Shown here one piece after another: positions 3,053 to 51,304 of a stretch of DNA of 64,000 nt. The stretch is from positions 38,122 to 102,121 of the forward strand of contig DALYDK010000001.1 in NCBI GenBank assembly GCA_031973215.1, in the 5' to 3' direction. Made by a program: the position numbers and the translations under genes. Under the pieces are notes generated by a model. It was not told where the DNA came from. It did not search any database and saw only the letters and a program-made list of their open reading frames with translations. Position 1 is the stretch's first letter. Each line of letters begins with the position of its first letter. This DNA comes from Candidatus Saccharimonadota bacterium. GTDB taxonomy: Bacteria; Patescibacteriota; Saccharimonadia; Saccharimonadales; CAIOMD01.

Positions 3053-4117
3053 ATGTTCTCTAAAAAAGCAAGAATAATTATAAATGTCATTACCATTGCG
3101 GCCTTGGCCGTACTTTTATATTTCTCGTGGGATGATATAACTAGGGGTCTAGAAGAAATTGGCGGAGCAGACTGGTCGATACTACTGTTGATGATTCCTC
3201 TGCAGATTATTAATTTCTATTCAGTGGGAATGCTTTATAAAGATTACTTTAAAGCAACTGGTCAACCTAAAGTTCCATCAAGGTGGCAGTTTTTCAAAAT
3301 TGCGCTTGAGCTCAATTTTGTCAATCATGTCTTTCCCAGCGGGGGTGTCGCCGGATTTTCGTACTTAGGCGTCAGACTCAAGGAAATGGGAATTCCCGTT
3401 GCCAGAACCACGCTTGCCCAAGTTATGCGTTTTGCCCTTACATTTATTAGCTTTTTAGCGCTACTCTTTTTTGGCTTATTCCTGCTTAGTTTTGACCAAA
3501 GGGCAGGTGGTGTCACTTTGTTTATTGCTTTATCGATTGCTTTTTTAACATTATTTGGTTCGGCTATAGGTGTATATATCATCAGCGACAATAAACGCAT
3601 TCAGGCATTTACCGGATTTCTGCCTAAGCTTGTTAATACAGTGTTCAGGCCATTTACCAGAAATAAAGAATTAATAAATATTTCTAAAGTAGAGAAACTA
3701 TTCGGAGATTTGCATCAAGATTATGACAAAATATCCAAACAAAGAAGTAAGCTAAAAAAGCCACTTATTTGGTCACTCCTAATTAACATCAGTGAAGTTG
3801 CGACAATTTATGTAGCATATTTAGCTCTAGGCCAGACAATTAATCCAGGAGCAGTAATTCTGGCATATTCGGTTGCCAGTTTTGCCGGTCTGGTATCTGT
3901 ATTGCCGGGTGGAATAGGAATTTATGAAGCGCTAATGACTGCAACTCTTGCTAGCGCCGGAGTTCCCAGCGCCTTGGCTTTATCTGCCACTTTAATTTAT
4001 CGAATATTTACAATAATTATATTTATACCTCTGGGTTTTGTTTTATACCAAATAGCAATTAGAAAGGGTGAGGCCGTAAAAGTTGAACGACCAAAAGCAA
4101 ATATTCAGTCCAACTGA
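3053..4117 (+). CDS. Flippase-like membrane protein (LPG-synthase TM domain / UPF0104 family)
   Basis: 354 aa and multi-TM. The C-terminal LPGGIGIYEALMTATLASAGV...LIYRIF motif is typical of this family. A paralog lies at 16277..17203. Confidence 0.7.
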   Translation: MFSKKARIIINVITIAALAVLLYFSWDDITRGLEEIGGADWSILLLMIPLQIINFYSVGMLYKDYFKATGQPKVPSRWQFFKIALELNFVNHVFPSGGVAGFSYLGVRLKEMGIPVARTTLAQVMRFALTFISFLALLFFGLFLLSFDQRAGGVTLFIALSIAFLTLFGSAIGVYIISDNKRIQAFTGFLPKLVNTVFRPFTRNKELINISKVEKLFGDLHQDYDKISKQRSKLKKPLIWSLLINISEVATIYVAYLALGQTINPGAVILAYSVASFAGLVSVLPGGIGIYEALMTATLASAGVPSALALSATLIYRIFTIIIFIPLGFVLYQIAIRKGEAVKVERPKANIQSN

Positions 4118-6782: not shown

Positions 6783-7448
6783 GTGTCTAAATTTTCTAAA
6801 CAGTATAAAAACTCACTTCTCTTTGATTTTCAGGAAAAATTTATTCAAATTAAAACATTGGCCGAAGCAGGTGTCTCGGGCGATGAAATAAGTAGAATAA
6901 GTAGCGAGGCCTTGTCGACGCTTAACTATGTTTTGTTTGCTAATCATTATGCACAAACTCAGCTAGAACTAACTAGTGTTTCGGCGGCAGGGGCTGCAAA
7001 AAGTGCACTTTTCGATATAGGCAACATTACAAAAAATTTACCTGTTGATATTTGTTTCGAGACTAGCCAAACACTAGACTTAGTTTATTCAAATTCAACC
7101 GCAATAAGAGGCATTGTTTTTGGCTTAGCAACTGGCTGCCTTAACATGTTAGAGCCTGGGAAAAGAGCAAAATTAGTTGTTTCTGTTCAGCAAACCAATA
7201 TTAATACTCAACGGGTTGGAATATTTTCAAACGATATTGACCTTAGGGCTTCAGAAATAAGAAAATCAGATACTTTCAAAGAAAATCTAATGGTTGCCCC
7301 TGAGCTAAGCGCAAACTCTGGTGTTGGTTTTTATATATCTAACGAACTTTCAAAAATGATAGACTCTAAAATTCAACAATTTAACCATCGCAGTTTGCCC
7401 GGTGTTGGTTTTTACGTTCCTTTAAGTAACCAGCTTCAGTTAGTATAA
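6783..7448 (+). CDS. Hypothetical protein with degenerate histidine-kinase-like ATPase C-terminus
   Basis: 221 aa with a GTG start. C-terminal SGVGFYISNELSKMI...PGVGFYVPL resembles the G2 box and lid of HATPase_c. I recognised no H-box. Confidence 0.45.
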   Translation: MSKFSKQYKNSLLFDFQEKFIQIKTLAEAGVSGDEISRISSEALSTLNYVLFANHYAQTQLELTSVSAAGAAKSALFDIGNITKNLPVDICFETSQTLDLVYSNSTAIRGIVFGLATGCLNMLEPGKRAKLVVSVQQTNINTQRVGIFSNDIDLRASEIRKSDTFKENLMVAPELSANSGVGFYISNELSKMIDSKIQQFNHRSLPGVGFYVPLSNQLQLV

Positions 7449-7845: not shown

Positions 7846-8518
7846 GGCAATTGTCTTAAGAAGAGTAAATTATGGCGAGGCCGACCGTATTGTTTCTGTC
7901 TTAACATCTAGCAGCGGCAGGGTTTCGGTACTTGCCAAAGGAGTACGAAAGCCAAAAAGTAAGCTAGCCGCAGGCATAGAGCCTTTTTGCATTAACGAAA
8001 TATGCTTTGCTCCAGGTAGGGGCGAAATTGCAACCCTCACTAGCTCAAGGATCTTAAAGAATCATACGCAATTTATTAATAGTTTAAAAAAGCTAGAGCT
8101 TGCCAATAAAATTCTAAAAAATCTTGACACTCACCTTGAAGAGAATAGTTCAGAAAACTATTTTAATCTTCTTGAAGCTGCAATAGAACAAATAAATATG
8201 GTAGATTCTGCGGATTTAATTGAGTTATGGTGGTTAGTCAATTTACTCAAAATTTCTGGAAACGATATAAATACAATTAGCCAGACAGATGGCCAACCTT
8301 TCAGCGAAAATATACTTTACAATCTAAATATAGATAAAGGGGGATTTATCGCTTCGGAAAGCGGATTAATTGAAGCAGGTGCAGTTAAAATTATCAAGCT
8401 TGCCAAAAACAACCCACCAAGCAAATTAATTCTACTAAAAAATTATCAGTCTTTTTGCGATTCTGTTTTGCCTCATATTAGAAGCTTCTATCGTTTTCAT
8501 ACAAGCGGCAACTACTAA
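7826..8518 (+). CDS. recO: DNA repair protein RecO
   Basis: IVDKAIVLRRVNYGEADRIVSVLTSSSGRVSVLAKGVRKPKSKL is the typical RecO OB-fold N-terminus. I chose the ATG at 7826, which has a GGAG 5 nt upstream, over the TTG at 7802. Confidence 0.85.
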   Translation: MKIIVDKAIVLRRVNYGEADRIVSVLTSSSGRVSVLAKGVRKPKSKLAAGIEPFCINEICFAPGRGEIATLTSSRILKNHTQFINSLKKLELANKILKNLDTHLEENSSENYFNLLEAAIEQINMVDSADLIELWWLVNLLKISGNDINTISQTDGQPFSENILYNLNIDKGGFIASESGLIEAGAVKIIKLAKNNPPSKLILLKNYQSFCDSVLPHIRSFYRFHTSGNY

Positions 8519-40242: not shown

Positions 40243-42543
40243 TTACTTTTTAGTTGATTTTCTTTTGGCTATTCGTTTTTTGGCTGGCTTAGCTTTTGCG
40301 AGTAACTCATTTGCCTCTAGTAGACTGATTTTTTCTGGTTCAATAGCTTTTGGTATGCGAGCATTTACTTTGCCGTTTGTAACGTAAGGTCCGAAAGGTC
40401 CTCTTAAAACCTGAATTTTTTCTTCGGCAAATTCTTTAATTTGACGATTGGCCTCTAGCTTAAGCTTTTCTTCATAAAGCTCGTTGGCTTTTTCTTCATC
40501 TACTTCAAATGGCCCAAGTGGCTTTGTAGATACAAAAGTCCTATCTACCTGAATGTACGGACCAAATCTACCAATATTGGCTTTAATTTCTTTACCGTCT
40601 TTAGTATGTCCTACCAGTCTAGGCAGCTTGAACATTTCAAGGGCTTCTTCTAGGGTGATTGATTCTAGACGGGTGTTGCTGGGGAATGGTGCAAACTGAG
40701 GCTTCTCTTCTGAGTCTGTGGAACCTTTTTGAAGCATTAGGCCATACTTACCATAGCGAGCAAATATTGGCTTACCGCTTGCTGGATCATTTCCTAGTTC
40801 CCGAGCCTGGGAACTTTCTGATCTGCTTACAGTCTCGGCATTCTCAACTAGGGGGTGAAATTTTGTATAAAAATCATCTATTGCTTTTTGCCATTTAATT
40901 TTCCCCTCGGCTACTTCGTCGAATTCTTCCTCTGCCTGGGCTGTAAAGCTTGAATCGACTATTTCGGCAAAATATTTTGCCAAGAAATCTGTTGCAACAT
41001 CCGCAAGGTGGGTGGGAATTAATTTAGACTTATCTGCTCCGTAAATTTCGGTTGTTTTCTTTTTCTCTATTGAGCCGTTTGTTAGTTTTAGCTCCAATAC
41101 ATCTTTTTCTTCACCTTCGATATCGACCTTTTCTATATATCCTCTTGTCTGGATTGTACTGATTGTTGGGGCGTATGTGCTTGGCCTGCCTATCCCTAGT
41201 TCTTCTAGTGTGCGTACTAGACTAGCTTCTGTATAACGAGATGGGTGCCTGGTGTATGATTCTGTGGAGGTAATTTCTTGTCTCTGAAGGCTTTGGCCTT
41301 GCTCTAGCTTGGGAAGAAGCTGATCTTCTTTGGTTCCGCCGTATACTTTCATGAAACCATCAAATAGTAACACCTCACCTTTGCCAACAAATTTTTCTGG
41401 CCTGGTGCTTATGGAAATATAGGCTTCGGTTTTCTCTGTTCGAGCTGGCGCCATCTGGGAGGCTACCATTCTTTTCCATATTAATTTGTATAGTTTTTGT
41501 TGCTGTGCGTCTGCTCCGGCTTCTAAGTTTGAGATATTCGTCGGCCTGATGGCTTCGTGTGCTTCTTGAGCCGATGCGTTCTTGGTTTTGTAGGTGCGAA
41601 CCTTTAGATAATTTTTACCAAATTCGGACTCTATATAAGAACTGGTGGCTGCAATTGCAATATTGCTAACAAATAAGCTGTCGGTACGCATATAAGTTAT
41701 GTGTCCGTTTTCATAGAGCTTTTGTGCGACACTCATTGTTTGCTTAACACTAAAGCCGAGCTTTCTTGACGCCTCTTGCTGTAAGGTGCTTGTTGTAAAG
41801 GGAGCTCCTGGGTTTCTTTCGCTGGGCTTTTTTAAGATTCCGTCAATAACATAAGATGCATCTATATTGTCTTCTAGGAATTTATTGGCTTTATCTTCGG
41901 AGTCAAATTTTTCATTAAGCTCCGCACTTAGTTCGTGTCCATCGGCCTGAAAGTTTCCAACAGTTTTATATGTCGATTGACTTTCAAAATTGGAAATTTC
42001 TCTCTCTTTGTCGACTATTAGCTTGACTGCCACCGATTGTACCCGGCCTGCGCTAAGACCTGGCTGGACCTTTTTCCATAATATAGGAGAAAGTTCGTAG
42101 CCTACTAATCTATCAAGAACACGCCTTGCCTGCTGGGCGTCAACTAAGTTTATATCTATGGTCCGGGGGTTCTCTATTGCTTTTGTAATAGCCGGCTTAG
42201 TTATTTCATGAAAAACAATTCTTTTGGTTTTGGCGGTATCTAACTTTAGAGCTTCGGCTAAATGCCATGCAATAGCCTCCCCTTCTCGGTCTTCATCGCT
42301 TGCTAGCCAGACTTGGTCAGATTGTTCTGCTAATTTTCTAAGTTCTGTGACAACCTTTTTTTTGTCTGCTGGAATTTCATACTTCGGTTGATAATTCTTT
42401 TCAACATTAATATTAAGGCCTTTTTTTGGTAAATCTCGGATATGTCCAAAGCTACTTTTTACTAGAAAATCTTTACCAAGAAACTTTTCTATAGTCTTGG
42501 CTTTGGCCGGACTTTCGACAATTACTAGATTTTTTTTCGCCAT
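40243..42543 (-). CDS. topA: DNA topoisomerase I
   Basis: 766 aa. The Toprim domain starts LVIVESPAKAKTIEKFLG. It also has DEDREGEAI and the active-site region YMRTDS. Confidence 0.95.
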   Translation of the reverse strand: MAKKNLVIVESPAKAKTIEKFLGKDFLVKSSFGHIRDLPKKGLNINVEKNYQPKYEIPADKKKVVTELRKLAEQSDQVWLASDEDREGEAIAWHLAEALKLDTAKTKRIVFHEITKPAITKAIENPRTIDINLVDAQQARRVLDRLVGYELSPILWKKVQPGLSAGRVQSVAVKLIVDKEREISNFESQSTYKTVGNFQADGHELSAELNEKFDSEDKANKFLEDNIDASYVIDGILKKPSERNPGAPFTTSTLQQEASRKLGFSVKQTMSVAQKLYENGHITYMRTDSLFVSNIAIAATSSYIESEFGKNYLKVRTYKTKNASAQEAHEAIRPTNISNLEAGADAQQQKLYKLIWKRMVASQMAPARTEKTEAYISISTRPEKFVGKGEVLLFDGFMKVYGGTKEDQLLPKLEQGQSLQRQEITSTESYTRHPSRYTEASLVRTLEELGIGRPSTYAPTISTIQTRGYIEKVDIEGEEKDVLELKLTNGSIEKKKTTEIYGADKSKLIPTHLADVATDFLAKYFAEIVDSSFTAQAEEEFDEVAEGKIKWQKAIDDFYTKFHPLVENAETVSRSESSQARELGNDPASGKPIFARYGKYGLMLQKGSTDSEEKPQFAPFPSNTRLESITLEEALEMFKLPRLVGHTKDGKEIKANIGRFGPYIQVDRTFVSTKPLGPFEVDEEKANELYEEKLKLEANRQIKEFAEEKIQVLRGPFGPYVTNGKVNARIPKAIEPEKISLLEANELLAKAKPAKKRIAKRKSTKK

Positions 42544-42621
42544 ATTCAGTAACTTAGGCTAAAGCTTTATAAAAATATTTGCAAGTACTAATATTGAAAA
42601 TTTTTAGTTAAATAAGATTAG

Positions 42622-43485
42622 CTAGATTAATTCCCAGGTATTATTTCCAACATTTCTAACAACACCCATTATTTCTAAATATGACAAAGTGCTATTTAGG
42701 TTGCTTGATGTCATTTTTGTCGTTTCGAGTAAACTTTCGAAATTAGCTTGGCCTTTAATTAGCACTTTTGCTATGTTCATTTGTTCTTCGTTCTCAAGAA
42801 GTGGTAGCTTTTTCTGAATATGCCGATTTTCCAAACCTAGCAAATTTAATATTTCTGCAGAATCATTAAGTAAATTAGCACCTGTTTTAATAAGATTATT
42901 GGTTCCTTCTGAGTCGGGGCTAAATATTGGTCCTGGTGCTGCAAATATATCTATGCCAAGATCTATACCAAACTGCGCAGTGTGCAGACTGCCACTTCCT
43001 TTGGCGGCTTCCGGTATGACAATAATGTCCGATAAGCCTGCGATAATGCGGTTTCTGGCAATAAAATTGCGTTTATAAGCTATTTTTTCATCTGGTTGGT
43101 ATTCGCTGATTAGGGCACCATCTTTAGCTATTTGGTTGGCTAAATTCAGGTGAGATCTGGGATATATGTTATTAACACCACAAGGTAGAATGGCAATTGT
43201 TAAGCCGTTTGATTTAAGGGCCTGTTGGTGAGCTACGGAGTCTATCCCAAGGGCAAGTCCACTCACGATGACAACGCCCTTTGCGACAAGGTCAGATACG
43301 ACTTTTTCTGTAACAGCTTTGCCGTAAGATGTTAATTTTCGGCTGCCAACAATTGCAACGCTAGGTAGTTTAAATAAGTCTATTGGATTGTCTAGTTCAG
43401 TTTTTATATAAAGATGATCAGGACTGTCGCTTAAGTGGACCAGCTTTTTGGGTATTTGTTTGGGTTTAAGCTTAAAAGTTTTCAT
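42622..43485 (-). CDS. dprA: DNA processing protein DprA
   Basis: It contains VAIVGSRKLTSYGK...VSGLALGIDSVAHQ...GSGSLHTA. I chose the ATG at 43485 (MKTFKL), because the longer track ORF would run through a plus-strand promoter. Confidence 0.9.
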   Translation of the reverse strand: MKTFKLKPKQIPKKLVHLSDSPDHLYIKTELDNPIDLFKLPSVAIVGSRKLTSYGKAVTEKVVSDLVAKGVVIVSGLALGIDSVAHQQALKSNGLTIAILPCGVNNIYPRSHLNLANQIAKDGALISEYQPDEKIAYKRNFIARNRIIAGLSDIIVIPEAAKGSGSLHTAQFGIDLGIDIFAAPGPIFSPDSEGTNNLIKTGANLLNDSAEILNLLGLENRHIQKKLPLLENEEQMNIAKVLIKGQANFESLLETTKMTSSNLNSTLSYLEIMGVVRNVGNNTWELI

Positions 43486-43501
43486 ATATTTAATAATACT
43501 A

Positions 43502-43530
43502 TTGACAATATTTACATTAAATGCTATTAT
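43502..43530 (+). promoter_or_regulatory. Near-consensus sigma70 promoter TTGACA-N17-TATTAT
   Basis: Hexamers at 43502-43507 and 43525-43530 with exactly 17 nt between them. There is no plus-strand ORF downstream. Confidence 0.55.
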
Positions 43531-43536
43531 TGTGTG

Positions 43537-43833
43537 CGTAAGTATGGCATTAGTCGTACTTAATGCACCTTTTACCCCCAAATTCTAACACTATGTTAGT
43601 AGAGTTAGATAGTTTTAGAGCAAGCAGCTAGATTCGTTGTTACCCTCCACGATTTATTTGCGCGCATTTTCTTTAGGGATTATGCAAAGTTCTAAAACTA
43701 ACTAATGCCTTTAACCTAAGCTCAACCCCTCGAGATATGTGAGGTGGAAATCACGAAGCGTGGGATATCTCCCAGGGTTGAAGGCGAAATAGAGCCTACA
43801 GCGGTGCCCACCCCCTCTGTAGGCTCTTTTTTT
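43537..43833 (+). ncRNA. Candidate ~300-nt structured RNA of unknown class
   Basis: It is bounded by the promoter above and by the terminator AGAGCCTACAG-15 nt-CTGTAGGCTCT plus T7 (43791-43833). Internal stems include GTGCGTAAGTA...TACTTAATGCAC and CAACCC..GAGATAT...ATATCTC..GGGTTG (43723-43780). No ORF is present. Confidence 0.45.
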
Positions 43834-44470
43834 ATAGAACTTTTCTGGTTTCTTCTTTGAATGATCCGCCGTAAATATACTCAGTTAAAATATTTGTCGA
43901 TTCTGACAAAATTTGAGGAATCTTAGGCTCTTCTTCTTTGCTAAATTTTCCTAGGACAAAATCACTGGCATCTATATTGCTACTTAAATCTGATTTAATT
44001 CCAATTCTAAGCCTATAAAAGTTGCTTTCCAGATGGTTGATAATAGATTTTATTCCATTGTGACCCGCGGCTTGCCCCCCCAATCTAGTTCTGATAGTGC
44101 CAAAAATTACTGCTAGTTCATCGTAAACAACCACAATATTTTCAGGACTTATTCTATAATAATCGGCCACAGCTCTAACGGATTGGCCGCTGTCATTCAT
44201 ATAAGTTTGTGGTTTGGCTAAAATTATCTTTTGGTTATTTATAATCTTTTCAGAAAACAGACCTTTAAATTTTGATACATTGGAAAATTCCGGAAAATCT
44301 TGGTTTTTGGCAAAATAATCTATTGCCCTGAAACCAATGTTGTGTCTTGTTAGCTCATATTGCTTACCCGGATTACCAAGACCTACAATTAGCTTGTAGC
44401 TTGTGGCAAGTCCTATAGTATAGGGCACTGTTTTGCTAACTTCTATTGGCTTTTTCTGAAAAAGTGCCAT
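43832..44470 (-). CDS. pth: Peptidyl-tRNA hydrolase
   Basis: 212 aa with LIVGLGNPGKQYELTRHNIGF and GGQAAGHNGIKSI. Confidence 0.95.
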   Translation of the reverse strand: MALFQKKPIEVSKTVPYTIGLATSYKLIVGLGNPGKQYELTRHNIGFRAIDYFAKNQDFPEFSNVSKFKGLFSEKIINNQKIILAKPQTYMNDSGQSVRAVADYYRISPENIVVVYDELAVIFGTIRTRLGGQAAGHNGIKSIINHLESNFYRLRIGIKSDLSSNIDASDFVLGKFSKEEEPKIPQILSESTNILTEYIYGGSFKEETRKVL

Positions 44471-44476
44471 AACAGC

Positions 44477-45820
44477 TTAATCCTCTGCCTTTTTCTTATG
44501 CCTGTCTTCATTTTTTGGTATAAACCACATTTTTATTGGCGTGCCTTCGAACCCATATTTCTGGCGCATGTTTTTCTCTAAATATCTTTTATAACTCCAG
44601 TGTAGTAGTTTGGTTTGGCTGCCGAATATTTTGAAGTTGGGGGTATCTTCTTCGGTTTGGGTTATATAGTTAAGCCTTGGATGAGAATTTTTTAGACCCG
44701 CAGGTGGATGTTCATCTACCGCTGCTCTAAGCCACTTGTTAAGTTCAGAAGTGGCAATTTTCTTACGACGATTTTGGAAAATTTCGGCAGTTAGGTCGAA
44801 TATTTTAGTGACATTTTGGCCGGTTATTGAACTAGTAAAGATCAGAGGCGCCCAAGGGACAAAAATAAATTCTTTTTGTATCATTGGTGCCAGTCTGTCT
44901 CTTGTAAAGGCGTCTTTGTCGATGACGCTATCCCACTTACTAACCACTAATATAAGACCCTTGCCGGCCTCCTTAATAAGTCCTGCAATTTTTTGATCAA
45001 GCTGAGTTCCTAATTCATTAACGTCCATTAGAAGTAAACAAACATCCGCCTCTTCTATGGCACTTAAAGACCTAATAACGCTAAATTTTTCTATTCCTAC
45101 TTCAATTTTGCCGCTTCTGCGAATACCTGCTGTGTCAAGTAGCTCAATTTCTTGCTGATTGTACTTAACGACTACTCTGTTTATGTCTCTTGTTGTACCT
45201 GCTCTATCGGCAACTATTGCTTGTTGTTTTTTTGATAGGCTATTAAACATTTGGCTTTTGCCAACATTGGGACGGCCTAAAATGGCTAATTTAATTCTAT
45301 TTGGATCCGAAGAGATTGTTGCCTGTGGTAGTTCGCGCGTTATTGAGTGAACTAGATCTTCTATGCCATTGTTCTGAGTAGTAGATGTAAAATAGATGTT
45401 TTTTATGCCAAGTTTTTGGAAATCTTTATATCCTAGACTGCCTTTCTTATCGGCTTTATTTACAACTAAAAAGACTGGCTTTTTGGTTTTCAGAATCATT
45501 TTGGCGATACGGCGATCTTCTTCTGTAATTGGAATATTAGCCTCGACTACCACCATTACTATATCGGCGCTATCGGCTGCCTGAAGTATCTGCTCTTGAA
45601 TAGTGAACTCAAAATCATCGGCAGCTTCTTTCATGCCAGCGGTGTCTACTAGCCAAAAATCTTTTTTATTGAAGCTGGCTTTTGCGACTATGCTGTCACG
45701 GGTTGTTCCGGGCTCGTTGGCAACAATTGCCTCACGCCTGCCAATAATGGCATTGAAGAGGCTACTTTTTCCGACATTAGCACGGCCAACAATAGCAACA
45801 ATAGGAATTTTTTTACTCAT
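44477..45820 (-). CDS. der: Ribosome biogenesis GTPase Der (EngA)
   Basis: 447 aa. It has two G domains (GRANVGKSSLFN, DTAG, NKAD; GRPNVGKSQMFN, DTAG, SKWD) plus a KH-like C-terminus. Confidence 0.95.
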   Translation of the reverse strand: MSKKIPIVAIVGRANVGKSSLFNAIIGRREAIVANEPGTTRDSIVAKASFNKKDFWLVDTAGMKEAADDFEFTIQEQILQAADSADIVMVVVEANIPITEEDRRIAKMILKTKKPVFLVVNKADKKGSLGYKDFQKLGIKNIYFTSTTQNNGIEDLVHSITRELPQATISSDPNRIKLAILGRPNVGKSQMFNSLSKKQQAIVADRAGTTRDINRVVVKYNQQEIELLDTAGIRRSGKIEVGIEKFSVIRSLSAIEEADVCLLLMDVNELGTQLDQKIAGLIKEAGKGLILVVSKWDSVIDKDAFTRDRLAPMIQKEFIFVPWAPLIFTSSITGQNVTKIFDLTAEIFQNRRKKIATSELNKWLRAAVDEHPPAGLKNSHPRLNYITQTEEDTPNFKIFGSQTKLLHWSYKRYLEKNMRQKYGFEGTPIKMWFIPKNEDRHKKKAED

Positions 45821-51229: not shown

Positions 51230-51304
51230 GGTCTCATCGTCTAACGGTTAGGACACCAGGTTCTCATCCTGGCAATCGGGGTTCGATTCCCCGTGAGATC
51301 ACCA
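51230..51304 (+). tRNA. tRNA-Glu (anticodon CUC), CCA encoded
   Basis: A manual cloverleaf fits. Acceptor: GGTCTCA/TGAGATC. D arm: GTCT-aacggtta-GGAC. Anticodon arm: CCAGG-TTCTCAT-CCTGG. T arm: CGGGG-TTCGATT-CCCCG. It ends A-CCA. The D-arm sequence TCGTCTAACGGTTAGGACACC is typical of tRNA-Glu. Confidence 0.9.

Follow-up and report, generated by a model that had tools for sequence, protein, structure and literature searches.

A structured RNA family encoded beside pth in Saccharibacteria and copies of its modules on phage-like contigs

Among free-replicating cells, the Patescibacteria, including Saccharibacteria (TM7), rank with those of smallest genome size, ~0.7–1 Mb in Saccharibacteria, and to our knowledge almost nothing is known of their regulatory and structural RNAs. 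The stretch of a Candidatus Saccharimonadota genome analysed here (64,000 nt of contig DALYDK010000001.1; hereafter the window) raises the question of what occupies the 345-nt gap between dprA and pth, in which a preliminary description had proposed an orphan RNA of ~300 nt. We find that the gap almost certainly carries a real, conserved and structured RNA on the forward strand. Relatives of this RNA occupy the same position in other Saccharibacteria, and its parts recur on phage-like contigs.

Covariation, transcription signals and fold

The evidence for the RNA comes from an alignment (A1) of the non-redundant set of 55 distinct sequences, 304–566 nt in length, in which six helices (P1, P2, P3, P3a, P4 and the terminal stem) comprising 50 base pairs were tested. 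Standard pairs occupied 91.9% of the alignment cells, compared with 83.1% in shuffles and 27–50% with slid partners. Both sides had changed at 30 of the 50 pairs, giving 223 compensatory cells, and none of 500 shuffles reached any of the observed covariation measures. The preliminary description had proposed a covariation test on homologues, and its outcome is that the stems are conserved. The U–G and G–U pairs, which number 24 at pair 7/39, 18 at 8/38, 28 at 12/34 and 50 in P4, would be C–A mismatches on the reverse strand, and therefore the forward strand is the RNA. In the window itself, the fold of the forward strand is far more stable than those of its shuffled versions (z = −5.3; 0 of 200 shuffles as good). 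The segment had been described as free of open reading frames (ORFs); two short ORFs of 29 and 38 aa do exist in it, sited in the most length- and sequence-variable part, and the alignment displays compensatory base-pair changes and no coding pattern (conservation of the short ORFs themselves was not directly tested).

The gene is framed by transcription signals that are conserved in the family. The sigma-70-type promoter (Table 1) matches the consensus at 11 of 12 positions in addition to the TG of the extended −10 element, is the sole site scoring above 9/12 within 42000–45000, and predicts an RNA start at ~43536–43538. A −35/−10 pair with 16–18 nt spacing stands at the equivalent position in all 55 homologues, 54 of which also have the TG. 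At the other end, ~260 nt beyond the promoter, AGAGCCTACAG (43791–43801) pairs with CTGTAGGCTCT (43817–43827) in an intrinsic terminator that overlaps the pth stop codon, and a T-run follows the terminal stem in 54 of the 55 homologues. A generic terminator scan with a loop limit of 8 nt missed this structure because of its 15-nt loop. Both signals had been read in the preliminary description, the one as a near-consensus promoter firing away from dprA and the other as a strong terminator with an 11-bp stem and T7 over the pth stop, and both are borne out; the terminal hairpin is, however, more than a terminator, and no other element of the family is as conserved as its loop. The 64-kb window holds one copy of the gene. 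Its own promoter, an intrinsic terminator and covariation on the transcribed strand, the generic marks of an independent bacterial noncoding RNA (ncRNA) gene, are all found here, and the locus is predicted to encode a highly structured ncRNA that is transcribed constitutively from a single gene copy.

Five helical domains (P1, P2, P3 with P3a, P4 and the terminal hairpin) follow one another in the fold, joined by invariant linkers; the core is fixed, and the peripheral helices vary in size between lineages across the length range given above. P1 is the 5′ hairpin already recognised in the preliminary description, and it covaries. The family strands of P4, CCCUUUAAC and GUUGAAGGG, are invariant or nearly so, with compensated changes at pairs 533/792, 534/791 and 535/790. 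A pairing of J1/2 with the P4 3′ strand, proposed by RNAalifold, was rejected as the main fold: the rare changes in the 3′ strand leave C–A mismatches with J1/2, and P4 is retained because these substitutions are compensated in its 5′ strand. The RNA may conceivably alternate between the two pairings. The long stem with a GGAA tip that had been described earlier stands only in part. Its inner part and tip are present, exclusively in the window lineage (the window and two collected loci, L001 and L002), but its outer pairs, CAACCC/GGGUUG, compete with the conserved P4 and were rejected on the same ground of compensation within P4; the resulting fold is also 3 kcal/mol worse (−26.4 versus −29.4 kcal/mol).

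The unpaired elements of the core are conserved at the level of sequence. The 11-nt P3a loop, UGUUACCCUCC, is invariant or nearly so, with ACCCUCC invariant in the alignment, and includes CCUCC, the anti-Shine-Dalgarno core. The 15-nt terminal loop, CGGUGCCCACCCCCU, is identical in the 55 sequences except for a C-to-U change at the first base in eight of them, and runs of five C residues occur both in this loop and in J1/2. In 50 of the 55 sequences, GGUGG, the complement of CCACC in the terminal loop, is found 6–7 nt ahead of the P4 3′ strand. The window lineage lacks it at this site and carries it in the apical loop at 43739–43754 instead, a relocation that hints at a pseudoknot or loop–loop contact. 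The terminal-loop CCCACC of the host RNA probably docks on GGUGG(G) of the same molecule.

Distribution, synteny and comparison with known RNA classes

Loci were collected via the Pth protein and searched by blastn and nhmmer with the window segment, and then by nhmmer with a profile. In almost every Saccharibacteria locus, the blastn and nhmmer matches lay downstream of pth and in antisense to it. Of 45 pth loci from Saccharibacteria, 42 contained the RNA in the profile search, with E-values down to 1e-106 (40 full length and two cut by contig ends), compared with none of 35 pth loci from other phyla. Two Saccharibacteria pth loci, L013 and L017, have no copy although 0.6–1.7 kb is available downstream of pth; the absence may reflect relocation or loss of the RNA, or an assembly or binning artefact. 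A metagenome collection was also scanned with the invariant terminal-loop 15-mer, which matched at least 120 stretches. Among the matches listed, at least 20 are copies with most or all of the RNA and at least four more are cut by contig ends, and these copies, although found blind to their neighbours, still lie in the order topA-dprA, RNA, pth-der. The metagenome loop matches outside the RNA family were mostly GC-rich and stemless. As far as sampled, the family is restricted to Saccharibacteria (Saccharimonadia).

The synteny is stable across Saccharimonadia genomes whose Pth is only 45–50% identical to that of the window. Among 37 genome loci, there are 14 in which the terminator directly adjoins pth and 23 in which 60–3559 nt of DNA intervene. 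The window copy forms the shortest lineage together with L001 and L002. Insertions of 150–200 nt were seen in J3/4 (L012:5149–5656), after P4 (L113:1794–2359) and in the middle of the molecule (L004:5038–5792).

This arrangement bears on whether the element acts in cis, either as a long reverse-strand 5′ leader of dprA-topA or as an element of antisense or terminator type by which convergent transcription controls pth. The position exactly between pth and dprA, with the terminator over the pth stop codon, would suit such a role, and the reverse strand of the window also folds better than shuffles (z = −3.4). However, G–U and U–G pairs at many covarying positions fit the forward strand only, the promoter and T-run are conserved on that strand, the RNA ends well away from pth in the 23 loci just mentioned, and the RNA or its modules occur on phage contigs devoid of both pth and dprA. 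We give a cis element scarcely any credence.

No known class accounted for the RNA. At the gathering threshold, Rfam 15 returned only a tRNA-Glu at 51230 in the window and no match on the RNA or hairpins of 16 genome loci and 18 viral loci. At E ≤ 10 (~13 bits), a search of 43300–44000, seven short loci and L024 gave only spurious microRNA-type matches on the P3 helix. Rfam had been named as a check in the preliminary description, and its proposal of an orphan RNA that is not a transfer-messenger RNA (tmRNA), RNase P RNA, 6S RNA or signal recognition particle (SRP) RNA held, with no confident assignment for the window copy and eight homologues even at these permissive E-values. ARAGORN found no tmRNA in the window, Rfam gave no tmRNA match, and no tRNA-like domain with acceptor stem, T-arm and 3′ CCA is present; the 3′ end of the RNA is the terminator hairpin. 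RNase P RNA was rejected for want of an RF00010 or RF00011 match at either threshold in the window copy, the seven short loci and L024. The P4 strands of RNase P RNA (GGAAAGUCC ... ACAGAA/GGCUUA) are missing from the family consensus and its invariant columns, and no P1 joins the ends, which are independent covarying hairpins; universal P4 strands and an end-joining P1 helix are the established motifs of RNase P RNA. 6S RNA was rejected likewise: the ends are unpaired, the closing stem and central bubble are replaced by a five-hairpin chain, and Rfam gave no match. The two classes do resemble the RNA in single copy, strong promoter, vertical inheritance and similar size, but differ from it in these defining elements and in the lack of a model match. 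SRP RNA gave no RF00169 or RF01854 match, its helix-8 motif, marked by a GNRA tetraloop and a conserved symmetric loop (AGG/AGCA), is missing from the consensus, and the GGAA-tipped element that recalls it is not conserved in the family. The covariance models of the OLE, ROOL, GOLLD, HEARO and raiA RNAs matched nothing in the window, the 16 genome, 18 viral and seven short loci or L024.

Some short resemblances to other elements were set aside: J3/4 is similar to the branch-site UACUAAC, the complement of J1/2 to an extended −10 element, and the terminal loop both to the SRP Alu loop GCGGUGCCC and to a stretch of 5S rRNA. The P3 strand GUUUUAGAGC (43611–43621) exactly matches the beginning of type II-A CRISPR (Cas9) repeats, and its partner (43689–43699) is anti-repeat-like, which we presume to be a coincidence; no CRISPR array or cas-sized ORF was noticed beside P3, other proteins of the window not having been annotated. 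In the literature search, the terminal-loop sequence was not found and no structured RNA specific to Saccharibacteria or Patescibacteria was described. By the measure of Rfam 15 and of the literature that could be searched, the RNA represents a new family, and no relative of it can be demonstrated.

One could still suppose that the RNA is an RNase P, 6S, SRP or tmRNA so divergent in the candidate phyla radiation (CPR) that standard models miss it. Its size range, single copy, strong promoter and order-wide conservation would fit such an RNA. CPR RNase P RNAs do fall below Rfam thresholds (PMC8172020), and the Prokaryotic Genome Annotation Pipeline (PGAP) lists only two ncRNAs in a complete Nanosynbacter (Saccharibacteria) genome (PMC8830319). 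However, in the 35 circular CPR genomes studied by Lui et al., whose table lists two Saccharimonadia, lowering the thresholds allowed RF00010 to detect RNase P RNAs (PMC8172020). Isolated copies of the present RNA matched none of the four classes at E ≤ 10, the consensus is devoid of the P4 strands, end-joining stem, helix-8 motif and tRNA-like domain by which they are recognised, and the phage mini-RNAs described below keep only 130–170 nt. The chance that it is one of them appears very slim.

Copies and modules on phage-like contigs

A scan of IMG/VR with the terminal-loop 15-mer returned 86 stretches with 87 exact matches, 48 of which cap perfect stems of at least five pairs (typically 7–12), compared with ~0.6 expected. 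The stems of these ~45 hairpins on phage-like contigs are mutually unrelated in sequence. When the viral and metagenome scans were combined, the base preceding GGUG was C in 74 of 76 hairpins. Some of the hairpins lie directly after promoter-like TGnTATAAT boxes, some form the terminators of very short transcription units, and those of L233 and L234 lie between two tRNA genes. A further group belongs to a conserved phage 5′ untranslated region (UTR; L207, L213, L226, L229, L237, L243, L254, L255 and L257), in which the order is a stop codon within GTTGAT, the loop-hairpin, a hairpin CCAGCUUUGCUGG, CCAAUAGAACAAAUCU, an AAGGAG ribosome-binding site and ATG. This UTR, which may be a cis-regulatory or processing element, lies downstream of a terminase gene (confirmed by tblastn) and of a 729-aa ORF that may, from its size and position, encode the portal protein; the acidic protein encoded downstream of it is taken to be a putative scaffolding protein. 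A GGUGGG-like motif was found within 150 nt of none of the 45 stand-alone phage hairpins, against a background of 11%, so that their loops would be free for interactions in trans.

The 5′ part of the RNA also occurs by itself. Scans with J1/2 and P3a-loop words found mini-RNAs of ~130–170 nt, which are composed of their own promoter, a P1-like hairpin, ACCUUAUACCCCCUA, often P2 (UUCUAAC/GUUAG) and a hairpin with the UACCCUCC loop nested in the terminator. About 8–10 mini-RNAs on IMG/VR contigs hold only this 5′ module, and L474 and L611 have J1/2 alone. No neighbouring genes common to the phage mini-RNAs were evident, and the two modules did not co-occur on one phage in the stretches examined. 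On this evidence the RNA has two separable modules, both of which are copied on phage-like contigs.

A full-length copy was found on one 38-kb IMG/VR contig, L273, at 7977–8374(+) at the contig end (nhmmer E = 6e-81). The genes of the host synteny are absent from this contig, whose ORFs include methyltransferase-, RecT- and FtsK-like ones, as judged by eye from translations with no family search. A second loop-hairpin lies at 6863–6877(−), 1.4 kb from the RNA copy and ~190 nt upstream of the RecT-like ORF, and a 626-aa protein is common to L273 and to L572, which carries a mini-RNA. The copy on L273 may be a phage-borne gene or may mark a host–prophage junction.

The full-length copy and the many module copies in IMG/VR could also be taken to mean that the RNA arose from a phage or mobile element, for example as an attachment site or a prophage-borne RNA that became fixed in Saccharibacteria. 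Set against such an origin are the stable chromosomal synteny across genomes with Pth of 45–50% identity, the single copy in the 64-kb window and the phage hairpins themselves, which have their own complementary stems and are not truncated gene ends. Integrase genes or repeat flanks were not noticed, the flanking ORFs not having been systematically annotated. We consider a mobile origin very unlikely. The phage copies are comparable, by analogy only, to phage tRNAs and tmRNAs and to the pseudo-ToxI antitoxin mimic, in that the whole RNA or its modules stand under their own promoters; they differ from these mimics in that the mimicry is modular, with the 5′ module and the 3′ loop-hairpin copied separately.

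Table 1. Features of the RNA locus and of related elements on other contigs. Positions without a prefix are those of the window.
Feature	Position	Strand	Description
RNA gene	43537–43833	+	Stand-alone, ~300 nt, promoter to intrinsic terminator
dprA	42622–43485	−	Divergent neighbour, outside the RNA; Pfam DNA_processg_A, E = 2e-64
pth	43832–44470	−	Convergent neighbour, outside the RNA; Pfam Pept_tRNA_hydro, E = 4e-61
Sigma-70-type promoter	43502–43530	+	−35 TTGACA at 43502–43507, 17-nt spacer, extended −10
Extended −10, TGcTATTAT	43522–43530	+	TATTAT at 43525–43530, TG upstream
P1 (helix 1)	43534–43568	+	5′ hairpin, GUGCGUAAGUAUGG / UCGUACUUAAUGCAC; both-side changes at 5 of 7 pairs, frequent U–G/G–U
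J1/2	43567–43579	+	Single-stranded, nearly invariant; ACCUUUUACCCCC in window, ACCUUAUACCCCC in family; kept in phage mini-RNAs
P2 (helices 2 and 3)	43583–43610	+	UUCUAAC ... GUUAGAU, small apical stem; 86–92% paired
P3 domain	43611–43699	+	Encloses P3a and a second variable hairpin
P3 long helix (helix 4)	43611–43621 / 43689–43699	+	AGUUUUAGAGC / GUUCUAAAACU; both-side changes at 8 of 11 pairs, 94.9% paired
P3a (helix 5)	43633–43653	+	UUCGU/ACGAU; stem covaries, AAGU/ACUU in most, UCGU/ACGA in window
P3a loop	43638–43648	+	11 nt
J3/4	43700–43706	+	Nearly invariant linker; AACUAAU in window, AAACUAAC in family
P4 domain	43707–43785	+	Interior strongly reduced in window lineage
P4 closing helix (helix 6)	43707–43716 / 43776–43785	+	GCCUUUAACC / GGUUGAAGGC; 98% paired
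P4 apical element	43739–43754	+	GUGAGGUGGAAAUCAC; carries GGUGG in window lineage
Terminal hairpin and intrinsic terminator (helix 7)	43791–43833	+	11-bp stem, both-side changes at 10 of 11 pairs; 15-nt loop; T7/U-tract ending at 43833
Terminal loop	43802–43816	+	15 nt
Loop-hairpin motif	L201–L286, e.g. L204:2333, L209:1933–1947, L233/L234, L255:5185–5199, L276:3506	L209 on −	Variable 7–12 bp stem with CGGUGCCCACCCCCU; IMG/VR; no Rfam family
Mini-RNAs	L419; L422:1079–1197(−); L423:3923+; L443:506–634(+); L567:5885(−); L572:4185+; L605:923(−); L455:3423+		~130–170 nt

Candidate functions and significance

We propose that the working parts of the RNA would be its invariant, unpaired and C-rich elements, arranged in two separable modules: J1/2 (ACCUUAUACCCCC) with the P3a loop (UGUUACCCUCC), and the loop of the terminal hairpin (CGGUGCCCACCCCCU). 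These elements may serve as recognition surfaces for a G-rich RNA or a C-rich-RNA-binding protein. In the host RNA the terminal loop would dock within the molecule on GGUGG(G), and the phage copies of the modules, in one case of the whole RNA, would plug into or compete for the same partner. A trans-acting or ribonucleoprotein (RNP)-type function exerted through the C-rich modules seems to us somewhat more likely than not. The candidate partners are a G-rich RNA such as Shine-Dalgarno (SD) regions, a C-rich-RNA-binding protein, and a second copy of the quasi-palindromic loop (GGUG..CACC); each of them, taken singly, has at best a modest chance of being the right one. An RNA partner, if there is one, could be recognised in rRNA, tRNA or mRNA 5′ regions by conserved stretches resembling GGGGGUAUAAGGU or GUGGAGGGUAACA. 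Only tentatively, we suggest that the RNA may define a housekeeping RNA or RNP class unique to Saccharibacteria, retained in their small genomes for an essential task and possibly involved in gene expression where mRNAs are largely leaderless, with the two C-rich modules as the interface to a conserved cellular partner, and that phages may have repeatedly copied the whole RNA, the 5′ module or the 15-nt loop-hairpin to hijack or jam that partner.

Several observations weigh against this proposal. The transcript itself is inferred from the DNA, and elements that are invariant cannot display covariation, so that the pairings of the terminal loop with GGUGGG, of loop with loop and with SD sequences are predictions; GGUGG is missing entirely from one homologue, L160. 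A search of the window and of a further set of Saccharibacteria sequences (532 kb) for stretches complementary to J1/2, the P3a loop and the terminal loop recovered only the RNA gene itself and scattered matches with 2–3 mismatches. SD sequences appear to be rare in this genome (GGAGG in 2 of 51 window upstream regions), which weakens a version of the proposal based on SD sequestration, and in many window genes (for example those with starts at 3053, 8541, 21754, 27304 and 58185) a TATAAT ends 6–10 nt before the ATG, a pattern that suggests widespread leaderless mRNAs. On the phage side, blastn of the RNA against 50,697 phage records gave no match, and the terminase of L255 is only ~25% identical to those of cultured phages. 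Finally, the two PGAP ncRNAs mentioned above mean that some housekeeping RNA escapes detection in Saccharibacteria, and hence leave a small chance that the RNA is an extremely divergent form of a known one.

A more specific version of the proposal is that the RNA is an anti-SD-like base-pairing regulator, in which unpaired CCUCC and CCCCC would pair with G-rich ribosome-binding sites in some of the mRNAs of the host or phage and block translation initiation. The C-rich small RNAs (sRNAs) RsaE/RoxS of Firmicutes pair with ribosome-binding sites and block initiation in this way. The Saccharibacteria RNA is similar to RsaE/RoxS and the UCCC-motif sRNAs of Staphylococcus in its unpaired C-rich motifs in loops and linkers, its own promoter and its intrinsic terminator, and the phage mini-RNAs match RsaE/RoxS-type sRNAs in size and in their classical layout of 5′ hairpin, single-stranded seed and terminator. 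The exact CCUCC core in the P3a loop, the C5 runs in J1/2 and the terminal loop, and the strong AAGGAG sites on some phage genes are consistent with such pairing, as is a 7-fold enrichment of CCTCC upstream of phage loop-hairpins (10 of 45 versus 1.4 expected), a figure inflated by related phage contigs. In contrast to RsaE/RoxS, however, the RNA is 3–5 times larger and more structured, its pairing is predicted only, its genome appears SD-poor, and no such family matched it in Rfam at E ≤ 10. SD seeds would need neither 11–15 invariant nucleotides nor an ornate scaffold of 300–560 nt. Most window genes have the TATAAT arrangement in place of an SD sequence, and the search for complements found no extended site. 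We regard this version as unlikely; were it true, conserved GGAGGGUAAC-like or GGGGGUAUAAGGU-like sites would be expected near start codons.

The architecture invites comparison with the large ornate ncRNAs (OLE, ROOL, GOLLD, HEARO and raiA), which are likewise hundreds of nucleotides long, multi-domain and lineage-restricted, with a conserved core, a variable periphery and strong covariation. ROOL and GOLLD also share the link to phages, and the raiA RNA lies near comFC as the present RNA lies beside a competence gene. It differs from all of these in having no match to their sequence or structure in Rfam and, as far as sampled, a distribution confined to Saccharibacteria, and is set apart by its open chain of hairpins, its C-rich invariant linkers and a terminator loop that is its most conserved element. 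ROOL and GOLLD reportedly form multimeric assemblies in recent cryo-electron microscopy work. By the same token, the quasi-palindromic terminal loop GGUGCCCACC (GGUG..CACC) might form kissing-loop dimers or oligomers that phage hairpins join or cap. As read from its sequence, two copies of the loop could join through two helices of 4 bp each, and the large multi-domain architecture with variable peripheral helices, the phage link with a hairpin between phage tRNA genes (L233 and L234), and the phage hairpins with no partner nearby would all be in keeping with self-assembly. But the symmetry of the loop extends to only 8 of 10 positions, an invariant loop cannot covary, neither the remainder of the loop (CCCU) nor the 5′ module is accounted for, and no ROOL or GOLLD model matched, and we hold self-assembly to be improbable.

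For the biology of Saccharibacteria, an RNA of 300–560 nt with rRNA-like invariant segments at one chromosomal position makes a strong candidate for a core function not yet recognised. The whole copy, the 5′ module and the loop-hairpin found on phage-like contigs amount to a natural dissection of the RNA into functional units and point to host–virus conflict. The family offers a new model for Rfam-type annotation and a target that is testable in Saccharibacteria, which are now genetically tractable. The loop-hairpin motif (CGGUGCCCACCCCCU) can be searched for in viromes and may help to assign phages to Saccharibacteria hosts.

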